In this document: in pieces, positions 8,801 to 45,003 of the stretch
How positions within the stretch are numbered: the first letter of the stretch is position 1
Layout: each line of letters starts with the position of its first letter
Assembly: GCA_016699425.1 (NCBI GenBank)
Contig: CP064975.1
Location: 987,957 to 1,051,956, forward strand
DNA from: Candidatus Moraniibacteriota bacterium
Lineage (GTDB): Bacteria; Patescibacteriota; Minisyncoccia; Moranbacterales; UBA1568
Direction: 5' to 3'
DNA: 64,000 bases
Program-made: the position numbers and the translations under genes
The notes under the pieces: model-generated
What the model saw: only the letters and a program-made list of their open reading frames with translations
What the model was told of the DNA's origin: nothing
Databases searched by the model: none

Positions 8801-8805
8801 AGAAC

Positions 8806-18828: not shown

Positions 18829-18866
18829 TTTTAAAAAAAACGCCGCAAGATATGCATCCTGCGGCT
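18829..18866 (-). terminator. Rho-independent terminator for the minus-strand methyltransferase operon
   Basis: On the minus strand, GCCGCAGGATGCATATCTTGCGGCG is followed by TTTTTTTT (the plus-strand A-run at 18833-18840). Confidence 0.6.
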
Positions 18867-20287: not shown

Positions 20288-20299
20288 AGTATTCCCCTT

Positions 20300-22034: not shown

Positions 22035-24260
22035 CTAGACTTTCCGGAGTGGAGCTACTCCAAGCATCATTTTCTTCACGCCCGCGCGCTTGAACGCGAC
22101 TGAGACGAGACTGCCGTCAAGTGCGATGACGAGGCCATTGCCAAACTGCTGATGCTCAACCATGTCGCCCGGCCGCAGGTCCTTAGCTGGCGAGATTGGT
22201 TCACCGCTCGTTTCAGCGCTCTGAACTGGAGCGGTGAAGCGGCGGATCGGGGCCGCATAACTTTTTCGTTTCGGTTTAGCGAATGACAAATTCATGCCAT
22301 TGGATTCACGCTTCGTGACGAGTACTTCAGGGATCTCTTCGAGGAAACGTGACGGCGGATTCATCTGAGTCGATCCGAAGATTGTCCGCATATCCGCGTG
22401 AATAAGATAGGCTTTCTCCTTGGCTCGGGTCAGCGCCACATACATGAGCCGGCGTTCTTCTTCAAGTTCCGCCCCCGACAAGGCACTCCGCGAATGAGGG
22501 AAGATCCCTTCCTCGAGCCCGACGATGAAGACGACCGGGAACTCAAGCCCTTTGGCGGAGTGAACGGTCATGAGATGGATGGCATCAGCGCGCTGATCAA
22601 TCGTGTCCGTGTCCGAGGCAAGCGCCACCTCCTCGAGGAACCGACTCATCGCTTCACGAATCGGCACGCCATCGAACTTCTGCGCAACCGAAAAAAGCTC
22701 CTGGACGTTTTCCTCGCGCGCCTCGCCTTCGGGTGTCCCATCACGGAGACTCTCCAGATAGCCGCTCTCGCGCGTGATGACATCGAGGAGTGCTCGCAGC
22801 GTCAGGCCGGCTTCATGGAGGAGGCTGTCCTGCCAATGGGCAAAGAGTTCCATGAAGGTTTCGATTGTTGCAATCTTCCGATCAGGGAGAATGCCTTCAG
22901 ACTTGAGTATCGGAATGATAGCGAGGAAATCGATCTCACGTGCCCGAGCCGTATCGGTCCAGGCCTTCAAGGTGGTCGGACCAATCCCGCGCTTCGGCTC
23001 ATTGACGATCCGTTCGAGTGCGAGGACGTCCCGCGGGTTAGCGAGAAAGCGTACATAGGCGACGACATCCTTCACTTCCTTGCGCTGATAAAATTTCAGG
23101 CCGCCGACAATTTTGTACGGCAATGACTCGCGAAGAAAAGCCTCTTCGATACTGCGCGACTGAGCATTGGTCCGGTACAAGACGGCAAACGAATGGTACG
23201 GGATATGCCGTTCCCGAACGATTTGCTTGATCTCTCGAGCGACGAATCCGGCTTCATCCTCCTCACTTTCAGCTGGATACAACGCGATGTTTTCACCCGA
23301 TGATTTGTCCGTCCACAGTTTTTTGTGGCGCTGATTGACATTGTTGCCGATGACCGCCGTCGCCGCATCGAGGATGATCTGCGTCGAGCGGTAATTCTGA
23401 TCGAGCGTGATGACCGCTGCCTCGGGATAGTCGGTCTCAAAGGAGAGGATGTTGCGGATATCAGCCTGCCGCCAAGAGTAGATGGATTGGTAATCGTCGC
23501 CAATCACAAAGAGGTTCTGGTACTTCGCCGCGAGGAGCTTGACCAACTGGTACTGGAGCGGGTTCGTATCCTGATACTCATCAACCAGGATGTAGCGGAA
23601 AGTCTCTTGATAATGCTCGAGCACATCCGGGTGCTCGGCAAAGAGGCGCACCGTGAGGAGGATGAGGTCATCGAAATCGAGCGCATTCGCCGCGACGAGT
23701 CCTGCCTGATAGCGCTCGTAAACCTTGCCCACGAGTTCCTCAAAGTAGCCATCTGCCAGGCTCAGGAAACGCTCGGTCGAAAGCTCCCGGCTCTTCGCAT
23801 TCGAGATTGCTTCCAGGATTGAGCGCGGCTTCACTTGGTCCGGATTCATTTCAAGCGCCTTCATCGATTTCTTCACGAGTGAAAGCTGTTCATCCGCGTC
23901 AACGATATTGAAATCTTTGCCATAGCCCAGCCGATCGATATCGCGACGAAGGATGCGGGCCGAGATATTGTGAAACGTTCCGATGAATTGCGGCATCCGG
24001 AAATGCTTTCCTTCGTTTTCCGCTGCCCGCTCCAACATGTGGGCTATTCGTTCGCGCATCTCCTGAGCCGCCTTATTGGTGAACGTCACCGCGAGAATCG
24101 CTTCTGGCGCAACGTGTTTCCCAGCCAGGAGATAGGCGATCCGGTGGGTCAGGGTTTTCGTCTTGCCACTCCCCGCCCCAGCCAAGATCAAAACCGGCCC
24201 ATCGACGGTCTCGACTGCGCGTTTCTGCTCCGGATTCAGCCCCGTTTCCCAAAATGACAT
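22035..24260 (-). CDS. pcrA: ATP-dependent DNA helicase PcrA/UvrD
   Basis: LNPEQKRAVETVDGPVLILAGAGSGKTKTLTHRIAYLL (motifs Q and I) and a full UvrD-like helicase body. Start set at MSFWETG (the ORF extends to 24278). Confidence 0.88.
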   Translation of the reverse strand: MSFWETGLNPEQKRAVETVDGPVLILAGAGSGKTKTLTHRIAYLLAGKHVAPEAILAVTFTNKAAQEMRERIAHMLERAAENEGKHFRMPQFIGTFHNISARILRRDIDRLGYGKDFNIVDADEQLSLVKKSMKALEMNPDQVKPRSILEAISNAKSRELSTERFLSLADGYFEELVGKVYERYQAGLVAANALDFDDLILLTVRLFAEHPDVLEHYQETFRYILVDEYQDTNPLQYQLVKLLAAKYQNLFVIGDDYQSIYSWRQADIRNILSFETDYPEAAVITLDQNYRSTQIILDAATAVIGNNVNQRHKKLWTDKSSGENIALYPAESEEDEAGFVAREIKQIVRERHIPYHSFAVLYRTNAQSRSIEEAFLRESLPYKIVGGLKFYQRKEVKDVVAYVRFLANPRDVLALERIVNEPKRGIGPTTLKAWTDTARAREIDFLAIIPILKSEGILPDRKIATIETFMELFAHWQDSLLHEAGLTLRALLDVITRESGYLESLRDGTPEGEAREENVQELFSVAQKFDGVPIREAMSRFLEEVALASDTDTIDQRADAIHLMTVHSAKGLEFPVVFIVGLEEGIFPHSRSALSGAELEEERRLMYVALTRAKEKAYLIHADMRTIFGSTQMNPPSRFLEEIPEVLVTKRESNGMNLSFAKPKRKSYAAPIRRFTAPVQSAETSGEPISPAKDLRPGDMVEHQQFGNGLVIALDGSLVSVAFKRAGVKKMMLGVAPLRKV

Positions 24261-24358
24261 AGGACTGTATTGTAGCATTTCTGTATCGGATCTTCATTCC
24301 ACGTGACAAGCACCTTCGACCAAGAGAAGGGTCTACCCGAGGCTCTCCTATGCTATAA

Positions 24359-29643: not shown

Positions 29644-31170
29644 TCAGTCACGGAAGCGATACTGAAGTGCTTCTGCTATATGAGCATCAGCAATGCTGTC
29701 CGCGCCCGCCAGATCAGCGATGGTGCGCGCGGTCTTCAGGATCCGGGTATAGGCCCGGGGCGACAAGTGATAGTGCTCCACAGCCTGCCGGAGGAGTGTC
29801 TGTCCAGCCACATCCAGCTCACAGTGTGCCTCAATGAGCTTATTATCGAGCTCGGCGTTTGACTGCTTGCCGGTCCCCTCGAGTCGCCCCCGACCGCGTT
29901 CACGCGCCGCCTGTACCCGACTTCGCACCACCTCGCTCGTCTCACCTATTGAACGATCGCGAAGTTCGTCGAAGGAAAGTCGCGGCACATCGACATGCAG
30001 ATCGATGCGATCGAGGATCGGCCCAGAAACCTTCTGTCGATACTTCTCGATCTGATAGGCACTACAGCCGCAGACACGTTCCGGATCGCCATGGTGTCCG
30101 CAGGGGCACGGATTCATCGCCGCGACGAGCATAAACCTCGCCGGGAAGGTCAGTGTCCCCTTCGCTCGTGACACCGTGACGATACCGTCTTCCAATGGCT
30201 GACGGAGACTTTCAAGGAGCGCACGCGGAAACTCAGCAAATTCATCCAAAAATAGCACCCCTCGATGCGCCAAACTGATTTCTCCTGGCTTCGGCAGCGT
30301 CCCGCCACCGACAAGCGAAACACCGCTCGCGGTGTGATGTGGGGCTCGGAAGGGCCGACTCTCGACAAGCGCCTCACCCCGCGCCAAACGACCGGCAACC
30401 GAAAAAATCTGGGTTACCTCGAGGCATTCTTCGAACGTAAGCTCGGGCAAAATTGTCGGGAGAGCTTTCGCGAGAAGCGTCTTGCCGCTTCCAGGCGGGC
30501 CAATCATAAGCACATTATGGCCGCCGGCGGCAGCGATCTCAAGCGCTCGTTTCACATGTTCCTGCCCACGGATGACCGAGAAGTCAGACGAGCTTGATCC
30601 CTGGCGCTTATCTTGGGGCCGTGTCTCAAGCATCGGCTGAAGAAGCACGCGTCCCTCCAGGTGTGCGACGAGCCCCGCAAGTGTCGAGCTAGCGAAAATA
30701 CGCAAGCCCGGAACCAGCGCCGCTTCGTGAGCGTTCGCTTCAGGGACAAAGATCTCCTCGAAGCCACACCGCTGCGCGAACAAGACGAGCGGCAGTACGC
30801 CCGAGACCGGTCGAATCCGTCCATCCAGCGCAAGTTCGCCGATAAAAAATCGCTTGGCGTAGGGAAAGGCAAGCTGCTTGGTCGCCAAGAGAAACGCCAG
30901 CGCCATGGGGAGGTCATAGGCTGAGGAGCCCTTGGGGAGGTCAGCTGGAGCGAGATTGACCGTCACGCGGCCGCTTTGATGCGGCGGACGGAAACCCGTG
31001 TTCTTGATCGCAGCGCTGACCCGATCCCGTGCCTCTTTCACAGCAGCATCCGGCAAACCGACCACATTAAACTGGTGCAGACCCTTGGTCAGGACGTCGG
31101 CCTCAATCTCGACCAAAACCCCGTCGAGTCCAACTGTGGCACCAGAATACACTTTAGCGGACATAGGCAA
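29644..31170 (-). CDS. YifB/ComM-family Mg-chelatase-like AAA+ ATPase
   Basis: N-terminus SGATVGLDGVLVEIEADVLTKGLHQFNVVGLPDAAVKEARDRVSAAI and AAA+ core VLMIGPPGSGKTLLAK. Confidence 0.85.
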   Translation of the reverse strand: MPMSAKVYSGATVGLDGVLVEIEADVLTKGLHQFNVVGLPDAAVKEARDRVSAAIKNTGFRPPHQSGRVTVNLAPADLPKGSSAYDLPMALAFLLATKQLAFPYAKRFFIGELALDGRIRPVSGVLPLVLFAQRCGFEEIFVPEANAHEAALVPGLRIFASSTLAGLVAHLEGRVLLQPMLETRPQDKRQGSSSSDFSVIRGQEHVKRALEIAAAGGHNVLMIGPPGSGKTLLAKALPTILPELTFEECLEVTQIFSVAGRLARGEALVESRPFRAPHHTASGVSLVGGGTLPKPGEISLAHRGVLFLDEFAEFPRALLESLRQPLEDGIVTVSRAKGTLTFPARFMLVAAMNPCPCGHHGDPERVCGCSAYQIEKYRQKVSGPILDRIDLHVDVPRLSFDELRDRSIGETSEVVRSRVQAARERGRGRLEGTGKQSNAELDNKLIEAHCELDVAGQTLLRQAVEHYHLSPRAYTRILKTARTIADLAGADSIADAHIAEALQYRFRD

Positions 31171-31582
31171 AGACTTTAGGCATCATCCCGAGAGTAGTAA
31201 CGAGGAGCAGCGCGACCCCGAGAAAAAGCATCATATCAGCCAAATTGAAACTTGGGAAGAACGGGAGGGCGATGTAGTCCGTGACACAACCATGGACACT
31301 CCGGTCAATCGCATTTACGGCCCCCCCGATGAATATGGTCATCCACGCGAGACAATCGATCAATGCAGACCGAGTCCAAGCCTGATAGCCCGCGATACAA
31401 AGGAGGAGCGTGATACTGAGCCACAGAATGGACGACGGGATAGCGAGCCCGAGTCCGATACCAGTATTACAGACCATGTGGGGCCAAGCGATAAGTCCAG
31501 AACGTAGCTCCCAGTCTACCACAGCCAAAAAAACAAAAAACCCGAGGAAGGAATACACCGTCTTCGGGTGAGAAATGATCAT
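31154..31582 (-). CDS. lspA: Lipoprotein signal peptidase II
   Basis: VCNTGIGLG and GGAVNAIDR...VTDYI motifs. Four TM helices. Confidence 0.8.
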   Translation of the reverse strand: MIISHPKTVYSFLGFFVFLAVVDWELRSGLIAWPHMVCNTGIGLGLAIPSSILWLSITLLLCIAGYQAWTRSALIDCLAWMTIFIGGAVNAIDRSVHGCVTDYIALPFFPSFNLADMMLFLGVALLLVTTLGMMPKVFAYVR

Positions 31583-31597
31583 ACTGATTGGCTGCTT

Positions 31598-31954
31598 CTA
31601 AGCGTCGACGAGCGTTCGGGCCGCCGGATAGGCTTCCAAGCGTTCAACTGGGATATCCTGTCCGGTCTTCTCACACACGCCATACGTTCCCGCATCCATC
31701 TTGGCAAGCGCAGCGCTCACTTCCTTAAGTTCGGTCTCGAGTGTTCCTTCAACAGCGAGCTTATCGGCGTAGTCCTCGACTTCAGTCGCATTCTCATCCG
31801 TATCCGTCCCGATATTCTCGAACTGCGTCTCATATTCCCCCGCCACACCCGTAGGCTTGGCTAGTCGCCCAAGCTCACTCTCAAGGCGCTCCTTTTCAGC
31901 CAGCAATTTTTCTTTCAGACGGTCGATAGTGGTTGTGTCCAAGGCCATAAGCAT
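31598..31954 (-). CDS. DksA/TraR-family regulator (Gram-positive YteA-like, incomplete zinc finger)
   Basis: Coiled-coil N-terminus and C-terminal GTYGVCEKTGQDIPVERLEAYPAA. Confidence 0.6.
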   Translation of the reverse strand: MLMALDTTTIDRLKEKLLAEKERLESELGRLAKPTGVAGEYETQFENIGTDTDENATEVEDYADKLAVEGTLETELKEVSAALAKMDAGTYGVCEKTGQDIPVERLEAYPAARTLVDA

Positions 31955-31998
31955 TCTATTTAAGATAGTTCTAGTATAGATGATCGAAGAAACCCTGT

Positions 31999-32379
31999 CT
32001 ACGAAAGAAAAACGTGATCCAAATGCCTGATTTCCGGTTCGCAGTCCGGAGCGAATGTAACCGCCACCACATCAAACGAATACTCACGCTCTTCGAGTCG
32101 GCGCTCCTTCAAGTACACACTTGCCGCCTTTTCCATTTTGCGAAGTTTGGCCCGAGTGACCTGCCATTCCGGCAGGCGCTCTTCTCGCCCGGCGAGGATG
32201 AAGGCCGCTTTGACCTCGACAAAGACTATTTCCCCTTGCTTCTCAGCCACGATATCGATCTCGCCCAACCTGAGCCCCCGCGTATTGGCGTAATTCCGCT
32301 CCCGAATGCGATAGCCATTAGCCTCGAGATACTCAGCCGCAGCGTCTTCCCCGGCTTGGCCAATATTCTGAGTTTCCAT
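31999..32379 (-). CDS. YraN-family (UPF0102) endonuclease
   Basis: GEDAAAEYLEANGYRIRERNYANTRGLRLGEIDIVAEKQGEIVFVEVKA. Start set at METQ (the ORF extends to 32586). Confidence 0.75.
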   Translation of the reverse strand: METQNIGQAGEDAAAEYLEANGYRIRERNYANTRGLRLGEIDIVAEKQGEIVFVEVKAAFILAGREERLPEWQVTRAKLRKMEKAASVYLKERRLEEREYSFDVVAVTFAPDCEPEIRHLDHVFLS

Positions 32380-33061
32380 TTGTGACTGAATCAAAGCTAT
32401 TTCAGTACAACATAGCGAAAAATACCTCATTTGGCAAACAAAAAACGGCCTATCAAGCCATTCTCTCCATTTTCTCCCCTCTTTCTCTCCCGACACCAGT
32501 ATTGTTGGTGCCGGGCGCTTGCCCGTAGACGCCGAATATATAAATATGTGGCCGTAACAAGCGCCCAGCGTGCGTGTGCCCAACATGTAGGCCGATAATG
32601 AAACGCTCGGGTGAGAAGCATTTGATTATACAAGCTTGCATGTGGTTTGATGCCCACGCGGTTTTAGGATATTTTCTGGTATTATCCTGATCTTTCACCG
32701 TTCTTTGGCTGTGCCTTAACAACTTTTAAAGGTACATGAGTACTTAACGTACTTCTTCTTTTTTGCTTTGTGTTTTTGTTTCAAAGTCGAGATATATTAT
32801 ATTTCCTCGAATTTGTGTGTTTGTTTTAGCGGCGCGCTCCAGACCAGATTAGGAGCTGTTGGTGACGATGCACCGAACGGTTAAACAGTGAAAGACTTCT
32901 CGGCCTCAAAAAAACTTGCGGAAGAGAGGTCTTTCGCTGTTCAGATCATATTTTCAAGTAACTTTTTCACTTCGACAAATCAATTATAGCAGAAAAATAT
33001 GCTCGAGTCAATTCACTCAGTGAATAATACCTTGCTTGCGCAATAATTCTTTTACTTGGAA

Positions 33062-33098
33062 ATAAAAAGACTCATCCTGTGATGAGCCTAACAAAAAA
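33062..33098 (-). terminator. Rho-independent terminator of gene 33128..34348
   Basis: On the minus strand, GGCTCATCACAGGATGAGTC is followed by TTTTTATTT. Confidence 0.55.
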
Positions 33099-33127
33099 AT
33101 AAGTGTTTGACTTTCAGAAAAGCATCT

Positions 33128-34348
33128 CTACAAACCTGTTTTATCCAGTACAGCGCGGAGTGAGTCCTTGCTGGTCCCGATAATCCACTGCCGCCCCCTG
33201 ACCGCATAGTCGACCGAGAGGCCGAGTGAGGCATCAACATTCGTAAAACGGACGGGGCGCTCCAAATACGTGCCATCCCGGAAGATAAGATTGTTCTTGG
33301 GCGCCGTCGTGACATCGAGGAACAGCGGTTCGATCGCCTGAGCGAGTTTTGACTCATTCAAGAGTAGTTTGGCAGCAAAGGCCGGCTCATCCTTCACATA
33401 GACGAGGAGAGCCAGGCGGGGACGGCCATTATCTATGGTGACATAAAGGGAGAAGGGCTCATCAAGGGTACCCAATAATTCCGCCGGCAGATTGAGCTTC
33501 GCCAGATAGGCGAACCTAGTGAAAGCGAGCGGGTTCAGCTTCTGATCACGGATGAGAAATTCAATGGCACCAGGAAGATTGTCCTTTTTGATGGTCTGAG
33601 CCGCCTGCAAAAGCCCGTTCTTGATCTGCTCGGACGTTACCGTTTCGATATCAAAGGTAAGGATATTCGGCTGTTCGACCAGGTATTTCGCCTGAGAGAC
33701 CGGCTCCGACTTAAGTTGATTGGTCTGGACAGCTGGGGATTCAACTCGGACATCGGGCTGATTCGGGTCATCCTCCAGAGAGGAGCGCCACCAAAGATAG
33801 GCTCCAGCGATAACGACAACCACGAGGAGACTACCTGCCAGAAGCGCGACAAGGTGCAATTTCCGGTCTCGAAAAAGCGGTGCAAACCCTTGAGTCAGAC
33901 GGAGGAGAGAGGCCAGCGACTCGCGGACCGAGGGGGCGACGACTGATCGGTGGGTCGTACTGAACGCGACGGAGGTGGTTTCAGGGTGTACCGGAGATAT
34001 ACTCGGTGCTTCGGGAACCACCGGAGACTTCGGGACAATCAGGGGTGGATCAAATGTCGGTGCCTCGTCGTCCGGAATTTGGTCCGTGGCAGGTGCCTCT
34101 TGGAGAAACGGACTTTCTTCAGCCGTCTGATGAGATGGTTTTTCCTCAGTCGCAACGCCCGGCGCAGTGAAAAATGGGACTCCCATGACTGCCTCCGGAC
34201 GAAAGGCGACCAACGGCTCGGCGTGCTTTTGCATTTCCGTCGGGACCTCCCGACCCGCGAGGTCATCCTCCATAGTCCGAACCAGAGCGCTCAAACTGTT
34301 TGGTGCAGCCGCTGACACCGTTGATTTTTGTGTTTTGAACCAATTCAT
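33128..34348 (-). CDS. Hypothetical membrane-anchored protein (406 aa)
   Basis: Long ORF with a single TM helix (LHLVALLAGSLLVVVVIAGAYLWW) and a Pro-rich N-terminal region. Confidence 0.6.
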   Translation of the reverse strand: MNWFKTQKSTVSAAAPNSLSALVRTMEDDLAGREVPTEMQKHAEPLVAFRPEAVMGVPFFTAPGVATEEKPSHQTAEESPFLQEAPATDQIPDDEAPTFDPPLIVPKSPVVPEAPSISPVHPETTSVAFSTTHRSVVAPSVRESLASLLRLTQGFAPLFRDRKLHLVALLAGSLLVVVVIAGAYLWWRSSLEDDPNQPDVRVESPAVQTNQLKSEPVSQAKYLVEQPNILTFDIETVTSEQIKNGLLQAAQTIKKDNLPGAIEFLIRDQKLNPLAFTRFAYLAKLNLPAELLGTLDEPFSLYVTIDNGRPRLALLVYVKDEPAFAAKLLLNESKLAQAIEPLFLDVTTAPKNNLIFRDGTYLERPVRFTNVDASLGLSVDYAVRGRQWIIGTSKDSLRAVLDKTGL

Positions 34349-34436
34349 AGCAATACAAAAGAGAGGCTATTCCTCTCTCAGTATACCACCACACAATAAA
34401 GTTGGTGGAGAGTATCGTACTATCTATTTTCTGCGG

Positions 34437-36578
34437 CTACTCTTTTCCCTCTTCGCCGAGTTCCTGACGGACCATTTTCGCCTTGGCCAGCTTGTGCGAC
34501 AGATTGATCCGGCCCTGAGCATCGATCTCCTTGACGACGACGGCGATGATGTCGCCGACTTTGACGACATCTTCCACTTTTTCGACACGGTAATCGGCCA
34601 GTTCTGAGATATGAATCAGTCCTTCCTGATTCGGGAGTACCTCGGCAAAGGCGCCGAAGTTCATGATTCGGGTGACGCGACCCTGAAACAGCTCCCCGAC
34701 GACCACTTCGCGGGTGATATTCCGTACCCATTCGACAGCTTTCTTAGCACTTGTCTCATCGACAGATGTGATGAAGACGGAACCATCATCCTCGATATCG
34801 ATTGAGACGCCGGTTTCATCGATAATCTGGTTGATCATCTTGCCGCCAGGGCCGATGACATCGCGAATCTTCTCGGGATTGATGTGGAGCGTGATGATCC
34901 GTGGTGCATAGGGTGACATCTCTTTCCGTGGCTCTGGGATAGCCGCGAGCATGACCGCCATGATTTCAAGCCGGGCTTCCTTTGCCTGTTTGATGGCCAA
35001 CCCCAGCGTATCAGCGGTGAGTCCATCAATCTTCACATCCATCTGCATCGCGGTGATCCCGTCTTTCGTGCCTGCCACCTTGAAATCCATATCGCCATAG
35101 TGATCCTCAAGTCCCTGAATATCGGTCAGGACTTTGAAACTCCCATCGGTACCGGCGATGACACCCATCGCGATTCCCGACACTGGTTTCTTGATCGGCA
35201 CCCCCGCATCCATGAGGGAAAGCGTCGACCCACAGGTTGAAGCCATCGACGATGAACCATTGGATGACAGGACTTCCGAAACGAGGTGAATGGTATACGG
35301 GAATTCTTCTTTCGAAGGCAGCACGGGCATGAGCGCTTTCTCGGCGAGAGCACCGTGCCCCACTTCGCGACGACCTGGGCCACGCATCGGTTTGACTTCA
35401 CCAACCGAATACGCCGGAAAATTGTAGAAATGCATATAACGCTTTTTCTCATCCGTTTCCATGGTGTCGACCACCATCTCATCACCCGGCGCGCCAAGCG
35501 TCGTCACTGTCAGGACTTGCGTTTCGCCACGTGAGAAAAGCCCCGTGCCATGCGTCCGTGGCAGAACACCCACTTGGGAAGCGAGCGGGCGAATCTCGGT
35601 CAGCTTCCGGCCATCCGGGCGACGGTCATGCTCGAGGACATTGGTGTGCAGTGCCGCGTCTGATAGTTCTTCCATAATGAGCGAGAGAACTTCAGTCTGA
35701 TGAGCTTCTTCAGGAAAATTGGCGGCTGCATACTCGGTCGCTGCCGCCTCAATGGCTGCAACTTTCTGTGCCATCGCCGCCTTCGGCTGCAAGAACAACG
35801 CCTCGCCCAAACCGAGCGAACTGATATATTCCTTCATCTTCACCTCAAATTCCGGCGTGCCGACGAGGAGTGCCGCCGCTTTCTTCTCGCGACCCGCCTC
35901 CTTCTTCACTGCTTCGATGAAATCCGTGATTTTCTGGATCGCCTCATGTCCATAGCGGAAAGCTTCTGTCATTTTCTCTTCTGTAATCTCTTGCGCTCCG
36001 CATTCGATCATATTGATCTTTGTCTTCGTCCCGGCGACGAGGAGGTCAAGCGTACTCACGCCACGTTCTTCACTCGAAGGGTTCAGCACAAATCCACCCC
36101 CGTTCACGATACCGACACGCACCGCGCCGATCGGGCCGTTCCACGGGATGTCAGAGAGTGTCAACGCGGCCGAAGCAGCGATCATCGCGACAACGTCCGG
36201 ATCATTTTCACCATCAATGGAAAGTACCGTTGTCACGACCTGGACTTCATTGCGCATCCGGCTATCAAAGAGTGGTCGGATCGTCCGATCCACGGCTCGA
36301 CCCGAGAGGATCGCATCGTCCGATGGCCGGCCTTCGCGTTTGATGAAGCGAGAACCCTTGATCTTGCCCGCGGCATAGTACCGCTCCTCGAAATCCACCA
36401 TGAGTGGGAAATAGCCGATGATTTTTGACATCGAACTGCTCATGACGGCCGTCGCGAGGACGACGGTATCGCCGTACTGCACCGTCACTGCCCCGTTCGC
36501 CTGACCAGCGAGTAATCCTGTGGATATGCGTAATTCACGCCCACCGAGCTGGAGAGACCATTTTCTGGCTCCTTGCAT
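34437..36578 (-). CDS. pnp: Polyribonucleotide nucleotidyltransferase (PNPase)
   Basis: Two RNase PH-like domains ([15 protein letters not shown]...; [15 protein letters not shown]), plus KH and S1 domains. Confidence 0.9.
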
Positions 36579-36851
36579 AGAGTTGAACCGCCCCAGGGTT
36601 CATAAACACGCGGCTTATTCCAACCAACAACCCACAACCGACAACCCACGACCGAGAGCGAGTATAACGATACGGGCTTCCCTTGGTAAGTTGTATGTTG
36701 TAGGTCGTAGGTGAGGGCAAGCCGTGTACCTATAAACCCCCTGGACGAAATTACTAAGTTAACGCCTCCACAGTAGCTTTTTTTTAAGCCTTTGTCAAAA
36801 GGAAAAACGAGTTCCTTCCGAAACTTGTCTCTCAACTAACTTCGTTCCTCA

Positions 36852-36902
36852 TTAAATAAGCAATTGCTTCTTGTTCTCGGAAAGATTCATGAAATCATCC
36901 AT
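36852..36902 (-). pseudogene. Relic of the 3' end of an NYN/LabA-like gene (encodes ...DDFMNLSENKKQLLI*); diverged direct repeat of 38281-38331
   Basis: Translation on the minus strand matches the C-terminus of 38281..38778 (ADDFMNLSDNKKRFLI*). About 79% nucleotide identity, with differences mostly at third codon positions. Confidence 0.6.
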
Positions 36903-36910
36903 CAACAACA

Positions 36911-36945
36911 AAAAAAAGAGACCCTCACGCACCACGTGAAGGTCT
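36911..36945 (-). terminator. Rho-independent terminator of gene 36971..37315
   Basis: On the minus strand, AGACCTTCACGtggtgCGTGAGGGTCT is followed by TTTTTTTT. Confidence 0.65.
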
Positions 36946-36970
36946 AATAGATAACTTTCTTTTTATTCCT

Positions 36971-37315
36971 TTATTCCTCTAGTCTTAGTAGTCTTAACGG
37001 ATGATGCCACAAAATTTCATGGCATATCGCATTCGTGATCCCTCCCCCCTTTGACTCCTCAAGGACATAAAGTGCGAGATCCCACATAAATATGTCTATG
37101 CTTCTATTATATCTCTCTAGATGACTCGCCATAGGCCCCCAGCCGACAAGCTTTCTCAATATTTTCATTACTTCTTGAGGATTCGTACCTCCCTCATCTT
37201 TTACCACCTTCTCTATCTGGTTGATAGAAAGGCCTAATTCTTCGAGTTGACGTTCCTTCGTTTCACCTGTCGCCCTGCAATACTTACAGCCACATCCTAC
37301 AATCCATTCGCTCAT
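36971..37315 (-). CDS. Hypothetical Cys-containing small protein (114 aa), low-GC
   Basis: Strong ribosome-binding site AAGGAG 7 nt upstream of the ATG at 37315. GCGCKYC motif. AT-rich codon usage unlike neighbouring genes. Confidence 0.6.
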   Translation of the reverse strand: MSEWIVGCGCKYCRATGETKERQLEELGLSINQIEKVVKDEGGTNPQEVMKILRKLVGWGPMASHLERYNRSIDIFMWDLALYVLEESKGGGITNAICHEILWHHPLRLLRLEE

Positions 37316-37453
37316 GTCTTTCTCCTTTTTAAAGTACCAAACTTGCACCCTTGCAAACTTTCTATCCTAGTGTATTCTATCATTTATGAGTGGCATATAT
37401 GACTCTGTGGTGTCTATTATCACCACTAATTACGAACACAATTGAGGCAATCT

Positions 37454-38230
37454 ATGTATCAGGGAATTTTTCAGGAGCTTGGTCTGGCCAAAAATGAGGG
37501 ACGTATATACGAAACTCTCCTCAGGGAAGGAGAGTTATCGGTGGGGAAAATCGCCGAGAAGTCGCATATCCACCGTCGCAACGTCTACGACTCGATGTCG
37601 CGCCTCGTTGAAAAAGGCCTTGTCTTTGAGATTCTTGAACGACGGGAAAGCAGCTACCAGGCAGTAGAACCTAATAAGCTCATGGAACTTGTCCGAGAAA
37701 AAGAAACAAAGCTCGCCGAAATCCTTCCGGACCTTGAGTCCCTGTACCATGGCGAACCGCGACGCGACGCGATCTTCGTCTACCGCGGATTGGAGGGGTG
37801 GAAGAACTACATGCGCGATATCCTGCGCCTCGGGAAGTCTTTTGATCTCCTGGGTGCCCGGGGTGCTCTCCGAGATCCGAAACTCGGCCCTCTCTTCAAA
37901 CAGTTCAAGAAAGATATGGAAAAGAAAGAAATCCGATCCCGCCTTCTCTACCACGAAGAAGCCGCCAGGATACCGGGAGTAGCAGGACATTTCGGTGCAT
38001 CCTCGACGTACAAGATACTCCCTGAACAGTATGCCCACCTCGCTTCGGCAGCCATTCTCGAGGACCGAGTGATGATATTTTCGGCCGTACCAGGGGTAGA
38101 GCGGGTCGCGGAAGAGACGACCATCACCATTCTCATAAACAAAGACATCGCCGACACGTTCCGTATGTGGTTCCAGTTTATGTGGGACAAGTTGCCGGTA
38201 ACGAAAGTTGAAAAGATAAAAGCCTCCTAG
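37454..38230 (+). CDS. TrmB-family transcriptional regulator (second paralogue)
   Basis: HTH LGLAKNEGRIYETLLREGELSVGKIAEKSHIHRRNVYDSMSRLVEKGLV. GAGG ribosome-binding site 6 nt before the ATG at 37454. Confidence 0.75.
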   Translation: MYQGIFQELGLAKNEGRIYETLLREGELSVGKIAEKSHIHRRNVYDSMSRLVEKGLVFEILERRESSYQAVEPNKLMELVREKETKLAEILPDLESLYHGEPRRDAIFVYRGLEGWKNYMRDILRLGKSFDLLGARGALRDPKLGPLFKQFKKDMEKKEIRSRLLYHEEAARIPGVAGHFGASSTYKILPEQYAHLASAAILEDRVMIFSAVPGVERVAEETTITILINKDIADTFRMWFQFMWDKLPVTKVEKIKAS

Positions 38231-38280
38231 GAGGCTTTTATAGAACAATCGACTTCGGACTGCCCATCAAATTAAGCAAG

Positions 38281-38778
38281 CTAAATCAGAAATCGTTTCT
38301 TGTTGTCGGAGAGGTTCATGAAGTCGTCTGCTTTCTCGAGGAGCTTGGCCGAGGCTGACTCGGCAAAGGCAATGACCTCGACCCGACAGCCGAAGGTATT
38401 TTGGAGGTACTCCACCAGGTGGACATAGTCTCCATCCCCCGAGACGAGCACGATGACATCGACTTTTGCGGCCATTTTGATTGCATCGATCGCGATACCG
38501 ACATCCCAGTCACCCTTGCGCGAGCCGTCAGGGAAGATCTGCAAGTCCTTGGTCATCACATCATACCCGCTCTTGGTCAACGCCTCAAAGAACTTCTCCT
38601 CCATACCCTCCGTCGTCTTAATGCCATAGGCCAGGGCACGAATGAGCTTGCGTTCATTGGTCCCCGCCTCCAGGACGGCCTTGAAATTTACTTTTTTGCT
38701 ATACAGCACTCGCGCGCTGTAGTAGAGGTTTTGGATATCCACGAGCACCCCTACCCGCTGGTCACTAAACTTCGCCAT
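38281..38778 (-). CDS. NYN-domain (LabA-like/DUF88) protein
   Basis: VGVLVDIQNLYYSAR...DVIVLVSGDGDYVHLVEYLQ is the NYN nuclease-fold signature. Confidence 0.7.
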   Translation of the reverse strand: MAKFSDQRVGVLVDIQNLYYSARVLYSKKVNFKAVLEAGTNERKLIRALAYGIKTTEGMEEKFFEALTKSGYDVMTKDLQIFPDGSRKGDWDVGIAIDAIKMAAKVDVIVLVSGDGDYVHLVEYLQNTFGCRVEVIAFAESASAKLLEKADDFMNLSDNKKRFLI

Positions 38779-38840
38779 AATAAATGTTTCACCGGTTTAA
38801 AATGCCTCAACAGAAACCGCCACTCGCGTGGCGGAAAAGT

Positions 38841-39104
38841 TTACAACCCGAGTTTCTTCACGAGCGCCTTGTAGGCCTTCTCGTTCACCTTCGCGAGGTA
38901 TGTGAGGAGCTTCTTGCGCTTGGCCACCATCTTCAGCAAGCCGCGGCGAGAATGAAAGTCTTGCTTATTCTTCTTCAAATGGGTGGTGAGTCGCTTGATC
39001 TGCTCCGTGAAAAGAGCGATCTGATACTCGGGAGAACCCGTGTCCGAATCATGTCGTTTCACATCACCCGTTACCTTTTCCTTTTGCTTGTGCGAGAGCG
39101 CCAT
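38841..39104 (-). CDS. rpsO: 30S ribosomal protein S15
   Basis: MALSHKQKEKVTGDVKRHDSDTGSPEYQIALFTEQIKRLTTHLKKNKQDFHSRRGLLKMV... Confidence 0.9.
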   Translation of the reverse strand: MALSHKQKEKVTGDVKRHDSDTGSPEYQIALFTEQIKRLTTHLKKNKQDFHSRRGLLKMVAKRKKLLTYLAKVNEKAYKALVKKLGL

Positions 39105-39275
39105 AGCGTCTTTGTCAGCGATGGACTCGCCGCAGCAGTTACCCGCCGGACCAATCCACGCTCGATGTATAAAAATTACCTTGTGAGAATAACCTACTTT
39201 CAACATTCTAGCAAGTACCACCCCTGTTTATTTGTCGCTTGGGGAGGAGTGCTACCACCCCAAGCGATGTTTCCT

Positions 39276-39518
39276 TTAACTCACATCAGACTTACTGATC
39301 CTATCGGGCTCGTGGATACCCGCTTTCTGCTCATCCGGAACCTGGAGTGAAGAATCTTGCTCTTCACGAATCGCCGCATTACATGGCCGGACGGTCACTT
39401 GCGAACCAACTGGCACGATAGTTACTGGGAAACCACTTTCATCTATCGGCTTATTCATACCCTCTACCTCCATGAGAAAAGGTACCCTCTTCATACTAAA
39501 GGACCAGTCTTTCGTCAA
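39276..39518 (-). CDS. Hypothetical small protein (80 aa) between rpsO and ispG
   Basis: ORF only. No motif. Confidence 0.25.
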   Translation of the reverse strand: MTKDWSFSMKRVPFLMEVEGMNKPIDESGFPVTIVPVGSQVTVRPCNAAIREEQDSSLQVPDEQKAGIHEPDRISKSDVS

Positions 39519-39546
39519 GTCGCGCGTCTCTTGAGTTGAACTCTAC

Positions 39547-40728
39547 CTAAGCACGTGGTTCGATCCACATTCCCTTAGCCTTTATGAGCAGAACGAGCTC
39601 GTCCACCGCCCGCTCTGATGGTACATCTCGCTTCACCAGTTCTTTCTTGTGATACAGGTTCACTTTATTTCTCGCACCACCAACATAACCGAAATCGGCA
39701 TCTGCCATTTCTCCAAGTCCATTCACGATACATCCCATGATAGCAATGCGTACTCCTTTCAAATGACCCATCCGTTCCTTGATCACATTGGTCACCGTTT
39801 CAAGATCATACAACGTTCGGCCACACGATGGGCAAGAAATAAACTCTGTGCGAGTGATCCTGCGGCGGGCAGCTTGCAAGATCCCGTAACATGTAGGGAT
39901 CTCCTTCACTGGGTCCTCGGTTAGTGAAACACGGATCGTGTCCCCCACGCCATCCAGGAGGAGAGTGCCAATACCGAGTGTCGACTTCGCCCGTCCCTCC
40001 TCTCCATTTCCAGCCTCAGTCACTCCCAAATGGATTGGGTAGTCCATCCCTTCTTTCTCTAAAGTTGCAACGAGAAGTCGGTTGGCCTCGATCATAATCA
40101 AAGGATCAGAGGCCTTCATCGCGACAACAATATCATCAAAGCCATGCTTCCTGAAGATCCTCATGTACTCCATCGCCGACTCCACCATACCAATCGGAGT
40201 ATCCCCGAAACGAGAGAGGACTCGGTCCGAGAGTGAACCATGATTCGATCCGATACGGATGGCTTTCTTAGCCGACTTGGCAGCCTCGATAAACGGGAGA
40301 AGGCTCTTCTCAATTCGCGCGACCTCCTCAGAATAGCTCGCATCATCAAAAGTAAACTCCCGAAATATTTTCCCATCCAAGAAATTCCCAGGGTTCAGGC
40401 GGACCTTGTCTGCCCATTTGAGCGCTTCGAAAGCAGCCGCAGGGAGAAAATGCACATCAGCAATAAGTGGGACACGTACTCCATCCTGCAGAAGCTTTTC
40501 CCGGATTGGACCGAGTGCCTGGGCATGTTTCGGGGTTGGTGTCGTCAATCGGATGAGTTCACAACCCGCACTGACACATGCCTTGATCTGAACAACCGTC
40601 GTCTCGATATCAAGCGTATCGGTATTTGTCATCGTCTGCACACGGATTGGATTATCCCCACCAATCCCGACCGATCCGACCATCACCACACGTGTTTTTC
40701 GGCGCGGCTTGAGTACTGAATTATCCAT
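39547..40728 (-). CDS. ispG: 4-hydroxy-3-methylbut-2-enyl diphosphate synthase (flavodoxin)
   Basis: IRVQTMTNTDT...ACVSAGCELIRLT and the C-terminal FISCPSCGRT iron-sulfur cluster motif. Confidence 0.9.
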   Translation of the reverse strand: MDNSVLKPRRKTRVVMVGSVGIGGDNPIRVQTMTNTDTLDIETTVVQIKACVSAGCELIRLTTPTPKHAQALGPIREKLLQDGVRVPLIADVHFLPAAAFEALKWADKVRLNPGNFLDGKIFREFTFDDASYSEEVARIEKSLLPFIEAAKSAKKAIRIGSNHGSLSDRVLSRFGDTPIGMVESAMEYMRIFRKHGFDDIVVAMKASDPLIMIEANRLLVATLEKEGMDYPIHLGVTEAGNGEEGRAKSTLGIGTLLLDGVGDTIRVSLTEDPVKEIPTCYGILQAARRRITRTEFISCPSCGRTLYDLETVTNVIKERMGHLKGVRIAIMGCIVNGLGEMADADFGYVGGARNKVNLYHKKELVKRDVPSERAVDELVLLIKAKGMWIEPRA

Positions 40729-40743
40729 TGTCGTCTTTCTGGG

Positions 40744-43203
40744 TTACAACAAAGTGAAGGCTCCGACACGGTCGCCGGCCTGGGGTCGCATGACACGTAC
40801 ACCCTGCGTGACCCGCGAAAGAAGCGGGACTGAAGCAAACGGCACCCGGATAATGATGCCCTTTTCCGAGGTCACGAGCATGTCGATTTCTTGGTCGGCA
40901 GGACTGGTAATATAGGCGGAAACGAGCTTGCCGGTTTTTGTGGTCACATTCATGGTCTTGATGCCGGAGCCGCCGCGCTTCTGGATCTTGTAGTGCTTCA
41001 GATCACTGCGCTTGCCATAGCCATTTTCGGAGAGGATGAGCAGCTCGCGATCCTTTGCCCCCTTTTCGACAACATCCATCGCAACTACCTGATCCCCGGT
41101 CCGAAGCTTGATACCGCGCACACCAGCTGCATTCCGGCCCATCGCTCGGACATCGCTCTCCTTGAAACGAATCGCTTGACCTCCTTGAGTCGTGATCATG
41201 ACTTCATCCGTGCCAGTCGTCGGTGCGACCCAATTCAGTGTATCGCCCTTTTCCAAGTTGATGGCGATGAGACCCGAGCGACGAACATTGGAGAAATCTT
41301 CGAGCTTGGATTTCTTCACCGTGCCATCCGTCGTCGCCATAAAGAGAAATTTCGAAGCATCATTCTTACCGAACGCGATCATCGCCGTTATCTTTTCTTC
41401 GTTTGAAAGTTGGAGAAAATTCACCACAGCCTGACCCTTGGCCGTGCGCGATGACTCTGGGATCTCGTACGCCTTCGTCTGGAAAATCTTGCCAGTATTG
41501 GTGAAGAACATAAGACTGTCATGTGTCTCGATCGAGAGCACCTTGGCGATCTTATCCTCTTCCTTCGTCGTCGCGCCGATCACTCCTTTGCCGCCGCGCT
41601 TCTGCACCCGATAGACAGTCGGATTCATGCGCTTGATGTACCCGTCGTCCGAGAGCGTCACGATGGCTTCTTCATTCGGGATGAGGTCCTCCTGGCGGAA
41701 CTCACCGATGCCGTTCTTCATGACTCGGGTCCGCCGCTCATCGCCAAATTTGTCGCGCACTTCGATGAGCTCCGTTTTCACGAGCGCGAGGATTTTTTTC
41801 TTGTGCCGAAGGAGGTCTTCGAGGTAGGCAATCAGTTTCAATTTTTCCGCCAGTTCGTCTTCGATTTTCTTGCGCTCGAGTCCGGCCAAGGTCTGAAGTC
41901 GCATCTCGAGAATCGCCGCTGCCTGCTTGTCGGACAGCTTGAATTTTTTCATCAGATTCGCATGCGCTTCTTCCTTCGTCGGCGACTGCTTGATCGTCTT
42001 GATGATTTCGTCGATGTGATCAAGTGCTTTCTTCAGACCTTCGAGGATATGGGCGCGGTCCTTGGCCTTTTGTAATTCGTATTCGCTGCGCCGCGTCACC
42101 ACGCGTTCGCGATGGACGATGTAGTGTTCGAGGATAGACTTCAGGTTGAGGATCTGTGGATCGACACCATCGACCAAAGCCAGCATGTTCACATTGAAAT
42201 TCTTTTGTAGGTCGGTCTGCGAGTACAGCTTGTTCAAAACCTTTTGCGGAAAAGCATCTTTCTTCAGATCGATAACGATACGAACGCCGTCCTTGTCACT
42301 CTCATCGCGCAAGTCCCGGATGCCCTGAATTTTGTCCTCCTTCACGAGGTCAGCAATCTTCTCGATAAGTGTTGCTTTGTTCGTCGCATAGGTCATCTCG
42401 GACACGATGATCTGGAACGCACCCGCCTTCGTCTCGACGATTTCCGCCACAGCGCGCGAGATAATCGGTCCGCGGCCCGTGACATACGTCTCGCGGATAT
42501 CCCGGGTGCTGTAGATGATACCGCCAGTCGGAAAGTCCGGCCCCTTGATGAACTGCATCAGGTCATCAACGTCACACTCTGGATTGTCGATCTGGAAGCA
42601 GATCGCGTCGACGAGTTCATTCAAATTGTGTGGGGCGATATTCGACGCCATACCGACCGCGATGCCGACGGTGCCATTGAGGAGGAGCTGTGGCAGCTTG
42701 GCTGGCAGCACGACTGGCTCCTCGTGCACACCATCAAAGTTCGGGATGAAGTCTACCGTATCCTTGTCGATATCGACGAGCATCTCTTCGGCAATCGCTT
42801 TCAGCTTGGCCTCGGTGTAGCGATACGCCGCCGCCCGGTCACCATCCATCGATCCGAAGTTTCCCTGGCCCCAGATCAGCGGATAGCGAAGGGAAAAATC
42901 TTGCGCCATGCGGACCATAGTGTCATACACCGCGGTGTCGCCATGCGGGTGGTATTTGCCGAGCACTTCACCGACGACCGTTGCCGACTTGCGAAATTTC
43001 GCCGATGAGCGCAACCCCGTCGACCACATCGAGTAGAGGATGCGCCGATGCACCGGCTTCAGACCGTCCCGGACATCGGGCAGTGCCCGACCGACGATGA
43101 CCGACATCGCGTAGTCGAGGTAGGACTGCTTCACCTCTTCGGTGATATTGCGCGCTTCGATGCGTCCCGAGTGAAATACGTTTTTTTCAGTCTTGTCAGC
43201 CAT
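40744..43203 (-). CDS. gyrA: DNA gyrase subunit A
   Basis: [15 protein letters not shown]...[37 protein letters not shown] and C-terminal beta-pinwheel repeats. Confidence 0.92.
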
Positions 43204-43207
43204 AGAT

Positions 43208-43612
43208 TTAGCGTAGCGGCATTGTAGGATCAGCTGTCTCCTGTTGTGGCCGATCGTCTTTCGGGATCACTCCTTCTTCGTCTGGATTGATACGAGTCCG
43301 ATTCTCCACTTGTTCACGGAGAAACTCCTCTCCCGACTTCGGCATACTCGTATCAGGCGCTTTGTCACCCGAGAGGAGCTCGTCCAAAGAGAAGTCTGAG
43401 GGCTTGGGCAGGATGCCAGCAGCCGACGCGGTCACGTCTTCGGTTTTCGCGACCGTACTCTTGAAATTTTCGGAGACCGTCAGCGACCACACAATGATGA
43501 CGAAAAACATGGATGCGAACACACAGCCGACCACATAGCGCTGGCGGATATGCTCCGGCTTCGTCTTCACTTCCTCGATCCAGTTTTGGAGATTCCAACG
43601 CATAACGGACAA
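43208..43612 (-). CDS. Hypothetical membrane-anchored protein (134 aa)
   Basis: ORF 4 nt downstream of gyrA. One TM helix. Confidence 0.5.
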
Positions 43613-43613
43613 G

Positions 43614-44273
43614 TTAGTTTTTTGCGAGGAGGACGACTTCCAGGTTCTTGCCTTCCAGGTCCTTTTTCTTCACATTCCACTTGGGCAATGTCTCTTTGGG
43701 GCAATTCCCCATCACCTTACAAAAGGGCTTTTCGTCTGGCAAGGTCGTCGTCATGCCAGCGATCTTGTAGTGCATCGGGATGACCGCCTTCGGTTCGATC
43801 CGACGGACGAGATCGTCGATCATGTTCACTGGCAATGTATCACCATCCCCCGCCGGGACAAAGAGAATATCAACGCCTGAGAGCCGTTCGATTGTCTCCG
43901 GTGCCGGTTCCGCCCCGAGCGCCCCGAGGAAACACAGACGCATTTCTTCTGTTTCAAACAAAAATATCGTATTTTGGCCGCGCTCTGCCCCACCCTGGGC
44001 GTCTCGAGCACTCGGAAACCCGAGTACGGCCACCCCCCTAGCCGAATACTCGCCCGGCACAAAGATCTTGACCGGATCCCCTTTCACGACCGACAGCTCC
44101 TCGGCCTCGGGCGACTGATGAGAAAGCAAGACAATATCTGCCTCGCCCTGGGGAGCGCGCAGCCCCAACCCTTTGGCCGGTACATCCGTCACGATGACCA
44201 CGTCCTCGGTCGCCCGGCCATTTGGCTTGGTCGTGATTTTGAAGCAATAATCGCCGTAATACTGGATATTCAT
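43614..44273 (-). CDS. MBL-fold metal-dependent hydrolase-like protein (UPF0173-like, His motif degenerate)
   Basis: MNIQYYGDYCFKITT...VVIVTD resembles the N-terminus of the MxIxYxGHSxFxI hydrolases, but HxHxDH is absent. Confidence 0.45.
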   Translation of the reverse strand: MNIQYYGDYCFKITTKPNGRATEDVVIVTDVPAKGLGLRAPQGEADIVLLSHQSPEAEELSVVKGDPVKIFVPGEYSARGVAVLGFPSARDAQGGAERGQNTIFLFETEEMRLCFLGALGAEPAPETIERLSGVDILFVPAGDGDTLPVNMIDDLVRRIEPKAVIPMHYKIAGMTTTLPDEKPFCKVMGNCPKETLPKWNVKKKDLEGKNLEVVLLAKN

Positions 44274-44550
44274 CCCGTTAGAAACAAGGGTTTACCCCTG
44301 CCTCGTTTAATCATTCGTTAATACCATTCGCTCAATTGACTTTTACTGTAATCCCACACAGCATCTAACGGGATTCATAACAAAAATAGGGCGGTCAGGC
44401 CAATTCGAATATGCTTCATGGTAGCAAGAAATAGCCCCGCCGACAAGGTGTCGCACCAGTAATTATTGGCTCATACTAAGCCATAAATCTAGTATTTTTG
44501 GTATACTAGCAAGCCGCCTCTGGGGTGATCCTCGAGTGATCTCCCACGAA

Positions 44551-44579
44551 TTGACAAATAGTGACGGAATGGTTATAGT
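44551..44579 (+). promoter_or_regulatory. Consensus sigma70-type promoter TTGACA-n17-TATAGT
   Basis: Perfect -35 box, 17-nt spacer and near-consensus -10 box, 70 nt upstream of the ATG at 44650 (GAGGAG ribosome-binding site at 44636). Confidence 0.45.
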
Positions 44580-44649
44580 GGTATGTCGTCACAAACTCGT
44601 GCCGACCTCCGCCTCGGAGTATCGCAACCGTACCTTGAGGAGCACTACC

Positions 44650-44913
44650 ATGGAGCTCACACCTAAAAGACTACGCGAGATCAGCTACGAACTCTCCAAA
44701 CTGGAAGTCTGTGGAGAAGTCGGGAGAGTCGCTCGAGAGGAAGGTATTAAGCCCGAATGCGTTCGGTTCACCCGGCGCCAACTCATGACCAAGCCTGTAT
44801 GTATCGACGGTCTTGATATTGATGTACTTGGGATCTCCCGGGATGAGTACGCCACTTTCAAGCGGAAAGCAGCTGCCGATGCCGGCTATTCCGATCTCTA
44901 CTCAGATGAGTAG
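44650..44913 (+). CDS. Hypothetical small protein (87 aa)
   Basis: ORF with a GAGGAG ribosome-binding site, downstream of the consensus promoter. The longer ORF from 44536 would start upstream of the predicted -10 box. Confidence 0.5.
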   Translation: MELTPKRLREISYELSKLEVCGEVGRVAREEGIKPECVRFTRRQLMTKPVCIDGLDIDVLGISRDEYATFKRKAAADAGYSDLYSDE

Positions 44914-45003
44914 CCACCCCCTCCCTAGTCTTGATACAGGGTAATTACCTTTCTCCCCCCTGGGGACTTTGAGGCAGAACAAGAACCTCTATCTCACTCG
45001 GGC

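Follow-up and report, generated by a model that had tools for sequence, protein, structure and literature searches.

The rpsO-NYN-pnp locus and its insert

The window analysed here is a stretch of 64,000 nucleotides from the genome of a Candidatus Moraniibacteriota bacterium (assembly GCA_016699425.1, contig CP064975.1, positions 987,957 to 1,051,956). Between an NYN/LabA-like gene and pnp, the window carries an insert with two cargo genes, behind which a short displaced copy of the 3' end of the NYN gene, referred to below as the relic, precedes the upstream region of pnp (Table 1). Read along the minus strand, the order is the NYN gene, a gene for a TrmB-family regulator lying on the plus strand, a small open reading frame (ORF), its terminator, the relic, and pnp. 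The initial annotation had placed the small ORF directly after the NYN gene, where the TrmB gene actually comes first. It had also regarded rpsO and pnp as normally adjacent. Across 170 related loci from Patescibacteria, the normal order was found to be rpsO-NYN-pnp, which is therefore the baseline of the phylum and identifies the NYN gene as a resident member of the operon.

Table 1. Features of the rpsO-NYN-pnp region, with positions counted from the first nucleotide of the window
Feature	Position	Strand	Remarks
pnp (polynucleotide phosphorylase)	34437..36578	minus	downstream conserved flank; Pfam RNase_PH, KH and S1 domains
pnp 5' leader	36579..36744	minus	contains a long hairpin
pnp upstream region	36745..36851	minus	moves with the relic; candidate promoter made of -35 TTGACA (36793-36798) and candidate -10 TACTGT (36770-36775)
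Displaced NYN tail (relic)	36852..36900	minus	encodes DDFMNLSENKKQLLI*, stop codon in register
Intrinsic terminator of cargo gene 2	36919..36945	minus	12-pair stem followed by a T run
Cargo gene 2	36971..37315	minus	114-aa orphan with an N-terminal CxCxxC motif; low GC
Divergent intergenic region between the cargo genes	37316..37453		138 bp, GC 0.36; presumed to hold promoters and an operator
Cargo gene 1	37454..38230	plus	TrmB-family winged-helix regulator, 258 aa; convergent with NYN
Palindrome AAAAGCCTCCTAGGAGGCTTTT	38218..38239		between the convergent NYN and TrmB genes, overlapping the TrmB stop codon; presumed bidirectional terminator
Functional repeat copy	38281..38328	minus	last 15 codons and stop codon of NYN (DDFMNLSDNKKRFLI*)
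NYN/LabA-like gene	38281..38778	minus	165 aa; insertion target; Pfam NYN E 2.1e-34; PDB 2qip E 4.7e-31
rpsO (ribosomal protein S15)	38841..39104	minus	first gene of the conserved rpsO-NYN-pnp unit; Pfam Ribosomal_S15 E 2.5e-31
ispG	39547-40728	minus	
gyrA	40744-43203	minus	

The displaced tail of the NYN gene

A repeat search of the window paired positions 36853-36899 with 38282-38328, corresponding to 47 nt at 81% identity with a spacing of 1429 nt, and a local alignment of the two copies gave 37 identical positions out of 47. A comparison in codon register, covering 48 nt with the stop codon included, gave 38 identical positions (79%). Nine of the ten differences fall on the third codon position and one on the second, a recount that replaces the earlier figure of eight third-position differences. 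Seven of the ten are silent, with the TAG/TAA exchange counted among them, and the other three alter the residue (D>E, R>Q, and F>L). The longest identical runs between the copies are 8 nt long (TTCATGAA and AACAAGAA).

The similarity is far better than chance. The NYN tail aligned with a score of 49, whereas 30 shuffled tails scored 18 on average and 28 at most. A degenerate codon pattern for DDFMNLS.NKK matched the 64 kb window at two places, which are the two tails, and gave no match in 100 dinucleotide-preserving shuffles. Moreover, when the tails of the 101 window ORFs of at least 120 aa were each compared with their own downstream sequence, the NYN tail gave the top match. The alignment, the shuffled controls, and the pattern search thus bear out the direct repeat of about 50 bp from the NYN 3' end that the initial annotation had described, together with the 79% identity of its copies and the mostly synonymous nature of their differences. 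An in-frame ATG lies ahead of the relic and creates a 16-codon mini-ORF, MDDFMNLSENKKQLLI (36852-36902, minus strand), and the same region contains a perfect 12 nt palindrome, AAGCAATTGCTT.

Empty and differently occupied sites in related strains

The 165-aa NYN protein is identical on 22 contigs of related strains, which fall into two classes, types A and B, with the window as a third, type C. In type A (L001, L006, L007, and L009), a sister species at about 91% DNA identity, the NYN gene is followed by pnp after 250 nt, representing the empty site that had been expected among the relatives. The relic and the sequence downstream of it align continuously with the NYN tail, stop codon, spacer, TTGACA box, and leader of L001. 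This colinearity suggests that the relic is part of an empty site into which DNA was put about 50 nt before the stop codon. The window insert was found in none of the type A or type B contigs, and the comparison confirms that the window arrangement is an insertion and not the ancestral state.

Type B (L002-L005, L008, and L010), which is conspecific with the window and about 99% identical to it on both sides, carries a different insert of 0.7 kb with an opposite-strand gene for a 180-aa protein containing a Trans_reg_C winged-helix domain. Between the window and type B, identity stops at the NYN stop codon and returns to 99% only at about position 36745. Within the NYN gene, mismatches occur at nt 159-174 and at nt 465-495 (five), with none across the 290 nt between them (175-464), and the divergence towards the gene end starts right after TTCATGAA, which is a palindrome. 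Because the differences near the end are confined to nt 465-495, each cassette has its own version of the last approximately 35 nt. The internal patch at nt 159-174 (window 38605-38620), with 5 mismatches in 16 nt and an unchanged protein, looks like a short gene conversion. Neither visual inspection nor alignment revealed a relic in type B, whose cassette seems to have taken the place of the old tail and of part of the spacer.

The region between the relic and the pnp leader (36745-36851) is 78% identical (83/106) to the post-NYN spacer of type A, and its promoter part (some 60 nt) shows an identity of about 75% whichever two of types A, B, and C are compared. The pnp leader (36579-36744) is identical to that of the type B contig L002 at 160 of 161 positions, and L003 has an extra 7 nt repeat unit. 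The leader, being 99% identical to type B, thus lies outside the exchanged tract. Its identity to the leader of the sister species is 66% (111/168). The RNA fold of positions 36560-36760 gave a long hairpin of -83.9 kcal/mol with a z score of -5.8, which we presume may serve as a processing or autoregulation site, as in the E. coli pnp leader. No Rfam RNA family was detected within window positions 30000-45000.

The sister species also differs upstream of rpsO. In L001 (7450-9670, compared with window 39105-40743), there is no ispG between gyrA and rpsO, and four other ORFs are found instead, including a TrmB-family gene of 259 aa with 25% identity to the TrmB protein of the insert. The gyrA-rpsO spacer is therefore variable as well.

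Recurrent occupation of the spacer and further displaced tails

The NYN-pnp spacer had a median length of 206 nt in 89 loci, a set in which several near-identical strains are included. It exceeded 450 nt in 24 loci and 1.4 kb in 10. As the seven type B loci are all among the 24 enlarged spacers, these would represent about 18 different inserts. Their cargo is unrelated from case to case and comprises a HEPN and nucleotidyltransferase pair, an IS200-like Y1 transposase gene (L024 7346-7852, just after a relic), a reverse transcriptase gene (L131 1329-2360), winged-helix proteins, orphans, and, judged from sequence only, HD-domain-like and MurQ-like proteins. The survey marks the NYN-pnp spacer as a recurrent landing pad. 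Most of the enlarged spacers are without a relic.

Besides the window, three NYN-site scars were found in two distant lineages, of which L097 has two and L024 one. In L097, whose NYN gene is 71% identical, relic 1 follows a 203-aa ORF and spans 59 nt. All eight of its differences are synonymous, including a TCG>AGT exchange between serine codons, and the functional L100 allele uses the same codons as this relic. Relic 2 follows a 93-aa ORF and covers about 39 nt with the stop codon in register. In L097, three tails thus enclose two cassettes, and one further ORF comes after them with no tail behind it. In L024, a frameshifted relic follows the HEPN and nucleotidyltransferase pair. Close relatives of L097 and L024, which could have shown the empty state, were not present among the fetched loci. 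Relic lengths vary from 32 to 59 nt, and the NYN-site relics of the three lineages all start within nt 440-460 of the gene.

A second scar in the window lies behind a UvrD/PcrA-type helicase gene (22035-24278) ending in KKMMLGVAPLRKV. Its relic at 18794-18832 (KMMLGVAPLRKM), 3.2 kb downstream, corresponds to the last 12 codons, with 26 of 32 positions identical, the differences there synonymous, and the stop codon in register. The island of 3.2 kb between the two begins with a TrmB paralogue (21184-21948), followed by a 245-aa ORF and two methyltransferase-like genes (ORFs 19170-21037). In both islands of the window, the first gene is thus of the TrmB family and faces the conserved gene in convergent orientation. 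In three other lineages (L181-L188, helicase 87-90% identical), the helicase gene directly abuts a convergent tyrosine recombinase gene, which represents the empty site, and the sister species has the helicase island with a more decayed relic. The tyrosine recombinase gene adjoining the helicase scar of the window (17660-18691) is present at the empty sites too and is therefore resident and not part of the island.

In a tail scan of the fetched loci, 9 of 1182 ORF tails scored at least 34, compared with one among the shuffled controls. At most eight of the nine matches are real, the weakest one (L085, scoring 34) being unlike a tail copy. Two matches are the NYN relics of L097 and L024, and two are clear further scars with aligned stops, in L135 and on the minus strand of L166; three remaining matches were not counted among the clear scars. 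The L135 scar (332-1523) surrounds a 107-aa ORF on one of several contigs that are Patescibacteria or DPANN-like, and the minus-strand scar of L166 surrounds a 467-aa gene (the L166 scars lie at 6694-9497 and 3741-5311). A plus-strand match of 75/79 nt in L166 surrounds what by eye could be a PIN-like gene, which may not be a real gene.

The cargo genes

The TrmB protein matched Pfam TrmB (PF01978) with an E value of 1.1e-14 and 54.4 bits, above the cutoff of 25.6, in its N-terminal part only, and PDB entry 3qph (TrmB) with an E value of 0.0025. Its C-terminal 180 residues had no match in the Pfam and PDB comparisons. The nearest homologues from outside are 57-60% identical, and the closest relatives adjoin periplasmic-binding proteins or methyltransferases, none of them being located beside an NYN gene. 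We considered whether the gene could be a recent copy of the window paralogue at 21184 or of the type A TrmB gene. The former showed 32% identity over the N-terminal 114 aligned residues only and the latter 25% identity, so that the gene, whose closest relatives are 57-60% identical and lie in unrelated contexts, is not a recent copy of either. Contig L171 has, at 900-8820, four or five TrmB-family genes in alternation with genes for periplasmic-binding proteins. The TrmB regulator family is strongly expanded in these bacteria.

The small ORF, initially given as 125 aa, is most likely 114 aa long, with a start at the ATG at 37315 and a GGAG ribosome-binding site, in agreement with the NCBI gene model IPJ68_05350. 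The only database match of the orphan protein was itself (NCBI, metagenome-assembled genome (MAG) hypothetical protein IPJ68_05350), and it had no Pfam, PHROGs, or PADLOC match. Its single-sequence AlphaFold2 model is helical with a predicted local distance difference test (pLDDT) score of 57, too poor for a fold search. A phage or defence origin of the cargo was also considered and was not supported: PADLOC and PHROGs matched the TrmB protein only weakly, to winged-helix entries, and did not match the orphan, and no viral contig encodes a relative.

The insert had initially been described as low in GC. This applies to the orphan ORF (GC 0.435, third-position GC 0.43) and to the non-coding parts (0.35-0.36), which make up about half of the insert, but not to the TrmB gene, which is host-like (GC 0.519, third-position GC 0.60). 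The insert as a whole has a GC content of 0.47 compared with 0.517 for the window.

The intergenic region shared by the two cargo genes contains the inverted repeat GTGGTG-N8-CACCAC with 6 bp arms (37407-37426), which, like the palindrome AAAAGCCTCCTAGGAGGCTTTT, was read directly from the sequence. We infer that the TrmB-type protein could control the divergent orphan gene through this region. The terminators probably insulate the NYN gene and pnp from the cassette. With terminators on both sides, a retained pnp promoter, and the leader hairpin, the operon genes should be little affected by the insertion.

Discussion

The two tails could inform about the origin of the insert. If differences were spread evenly across codon positions, nine out of ten at the third position would have a binomial probability of 3.6e-4. 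Moreover, five of the six relic-specific bases are present in functional NYN alleles of other Moraniibacteriota, including the GAG codon (Glu) found in several family members, which fits the view that the relic came from another functional allele and then decayed slightly (R>Q and F>L). However, under a model of AT-biased decay acting on GC-rich third positions, we calculated P ~0.2 for the six relic-specific changes, whose bias would then be unremarkable. The codon-position argument is thus only suggestive for the window relic alone, and it is the L097 relic that makes the case strongly. The initial annotation had excluded a recent local duplication, which agrees with the third-position bias, with the bases shared with functional alleles, and with the synonymous L097 relic. 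Its further claim that the relic derives from a diverged but functional homologue gains from these shared bases and loses from the AT-biased decay, and either of the two tails could be the foreign one.

On balance, and with confidence only a little above even, we favour the view that the two-gene cassette of 1.38 kb, placed exactly at the NYN 3' end, was acquired through a recombination event that used the conserved gene as its anchor and had an illegitimate junction on the far side, with later exchange between strains. Incoming DNA, probably taken up by natural transformation, would pair with the chromosome through the conserved gene as a homologous anchor and supply its own copy of the gene end plus foreign genes. 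At its far end, an illegitimate junction would form some 50 nt upstream of the stop codon of the resident gene, a process defined as homology-facilitated illegitimate recombination (PMC3240628). The outcome would be an intact gene, the cargo, and the displaced resident tail in front of an untouched pnp promoter, and repeated events would stack cassettes with the newest beside the gene. The variable tract, from NYN nt 465 to about position 36745, could then be swapped between strains by homologous recombination in the NYN and pnp flanks; such exchange of whole cassettes would explain the sharp boundaries at 99% identity. Patescibacteria have been reported, at the level of the phylum, to possess comEC and pili for DNA uptake as well as recombination genes (PMC12455944). 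Neither a recombinase nor a transposase was found for the insert by Pfam, PHROGs, and PADLOC comparisons, and repeat search and folding gave no terminal inverted repeats and no attC-like hairpins in or beside it.

Several observations weigh against this interpretation. The cited papers call homology-facilitated illegitimate recombination rare. No donor sequence that could reveal microhomology at the junction was found, and the cassette proteins are unique to one genome. Exact look-ups of the 125-aa ORF, the 258-aa TrmB protein, the recombinase, and an S15 ORF of 89 aa (the gene model has 87 aa and is thus two codons shorter) returned no record, and only one assembly (1.2 Mb) carries the insert, on which its junctions therefore rest. 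Compared with the sister species, the current tail differs at 4/48 positions, the same divergence as that of the whole gene (40/498, 8%), the relic at 8/48, and type B at 7/48; these counts are too small to tell a resident tail from an incoming one. Finally, the narrow range of relic starts (NYN nt 440-460) and the onset of divergence right after TTCATGAA would also fit the preferred crossover site of a recombinase. This last point leads to site-specific integration, which we regard as unlikely but worth serious attention. A cassette, or a larger and now reduced element, would carry an attachment site mimicking the last 40-60 nt of NYN and be integrated by a tyrosine or serine recombinase acting in trans, so that the gene end is restored and the original tail becomes the distal repeat; repeated integration would produce tandem arrays. 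Direct repeats from the target 3' end, the precise empty site, the clustering of relic starts in three lineages, the position of the palindrome in the comparison with type B, the two L097 cassettes bounded by three tails, and a resident tyrosine recombinase gene beside the second scar all speak for this. On the other hand, neither the insert nor the other cassettes contain a recombinase, and the one near the helicase island is found at empty sites as well. An identical run of 8 nt at most and relic lengths from 32 to 59 nt are not what such a site would lead one to expect, nor are scars behind unrelated genes with unrelated tail sequences, or the many enlarged spacers that have no relic. The initial proposal of a foreign segment entering through homology at the NYN 3' end is thus supported as regards the insertion and plausible, though unproven, as regards the route; a recombinase-mediated route is a less likely alternative.

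Two further routes are harder to reconcile with the data. A circle carrying the cassette and one NYN tail, formed by tail-by-relic recombination elsewhere, could integrate in the manner of Campbell by a single RecA-dependent crossover. Such integration predicts one tail more than cassettes, as observed for the window, L024, and the first two L097 cassettes, and it agrees with each cassette having its own tail version in types A, B, and C; yet tail homology of 40-60 nt at about 80-87% identity is generally a poor RecA substrate, the first duplication would still need another route, and no circular junction was seen in the data at hand, so that we judge it improbable. Still more doubtful, to the point of being disfavoured outright, is a local origin, in which the relic would be the remnant of a tandem NYN paralogue, most of which was deleted or was overwritten by the inserted cassette, or a decayed local duplication. 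A duplicated gene end is expected from such a history, and the AT-biased neutral decay considered above would account for the third-position bias. Nevertheless, a second NYN copy occurs in none of the 170 related loci, the relic and its downstream sequence are colinear with a single-copy empty site, and conspecific strains hold other cassettes at the same point. Local decay would also have to reproduce bases of functional alleles at five of six relic-specific positions and, in L097, purely synonymous differences with a three-base serine switch shared with the functional L100 allele.

A more speculative idea, which we rate as a long shot, is that Patescibacteria have a dedicated system capturing cassettes at the last 40-60 nt of conserved genes, operating with neither an integron integrase nor attC, in which a resident tyrosine recombinase like the one beside the second scar might act in trans. 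If this were true, fixed housekeeping sites such as the NYN tail would act as landing pads on which small accessory modules accumulate, each with a synonymous replacement tail, and the TrmB-family proteins, with which both islands begin, could take part in the process and not be passive cargo.

Whichever route is correct, the insert is strain-specific accessory DNA that leaves the NYN gene, the pnp promoter, and the leader undisturbed. Most Patescibacteria are uncultivated, their genomes are small and streamlined, and what is known of their gene gain comes mainly from bulk statistics. Displaced tails, as scars at the level of single bases, each preserve the record of one acquisition event and are easily searchable. 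They show accessory genes entering exactly at the 3' ends of conserved genes, with the incoming DNA giving a working replacement end, and they show cassettes later being exchanged between strains by recombination in the flanks.

Comparison with known systems

Among mobile elements, a transposon or insertion sequence was rejected as an explanation, as there is neither a transposase nor end inverted repeats, and the flanking repeat of 48 nt is only 79% identical. Islands integrated by integrases at the 3' ends of tRNA, tmRNA, or protein genes resemble the NYN-site cassettes in their direct repeats, the intact gene, the precise empty site, and tandem accretion. They differ in that our cassettes contain no integrase and no long identical core, have repeats of variable length, and carry cargo of 0.5-3 kb. 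The L097 locus, where small ORFs of one orientation each have a repeat copy behind them beside a fixed insertion point, is reminiscent of an integron array. However, there is no IntI gene or attI at the site, where the neighbours are rpsO, NYN, and pnp, the repeats are coding copies, and in the window cassette the genes are of mixed orientation, with presumed promoters of their own. When two tails and two relics were folded as DNA, the z scores were -0.11, -1.95, +1.38, and +0.17, with no attC hairpin.

For natural transformation, homology-facilitated illegitimate recombination is known from experiments in Acinetobacter, Pseudomonas stutzeri, and Streptococcus pneumoniae. Whereas the event here is deduced from the scar alone, a one-sided anchor with an illegitimate far junction would give exactly the arrangement seen in the window, namely an intact gene, foreign DNA, and resident sequence resuming slightly upstream.

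The same model has been proposed for the Vibrio cholerae type VI secretion system (T6SS), in which the 3' ends of effector genes together with immunity genes are displaced sequentially, and for Rhs orphan arrays (PMC5361080). As in the T6SS, Rhs, and contact-dependent inhibition (CDI) loci, the new DNA is anchored in a conserved upstream coding region, and the prior 3' part is pushed downstream as a remnant. Arrays with the newest unit beside the intact gene are likewise shared, as illustrated by the two successive relics of L097. In contrast to those loci, the target here is a housekeeping operon gene whose product is unchanged, the remnant comprises only the last 11-19 codons, the cargo consists of accessory genes (regulators, a toxin-antitoxin pair, and orphans) and not of effector-immunity pairs, and the hosts are Patescibacteria. 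The event belongs to an ordinary, known kind, but within this phylum it is a clear and repeatedly found example that seems not to have been described before.

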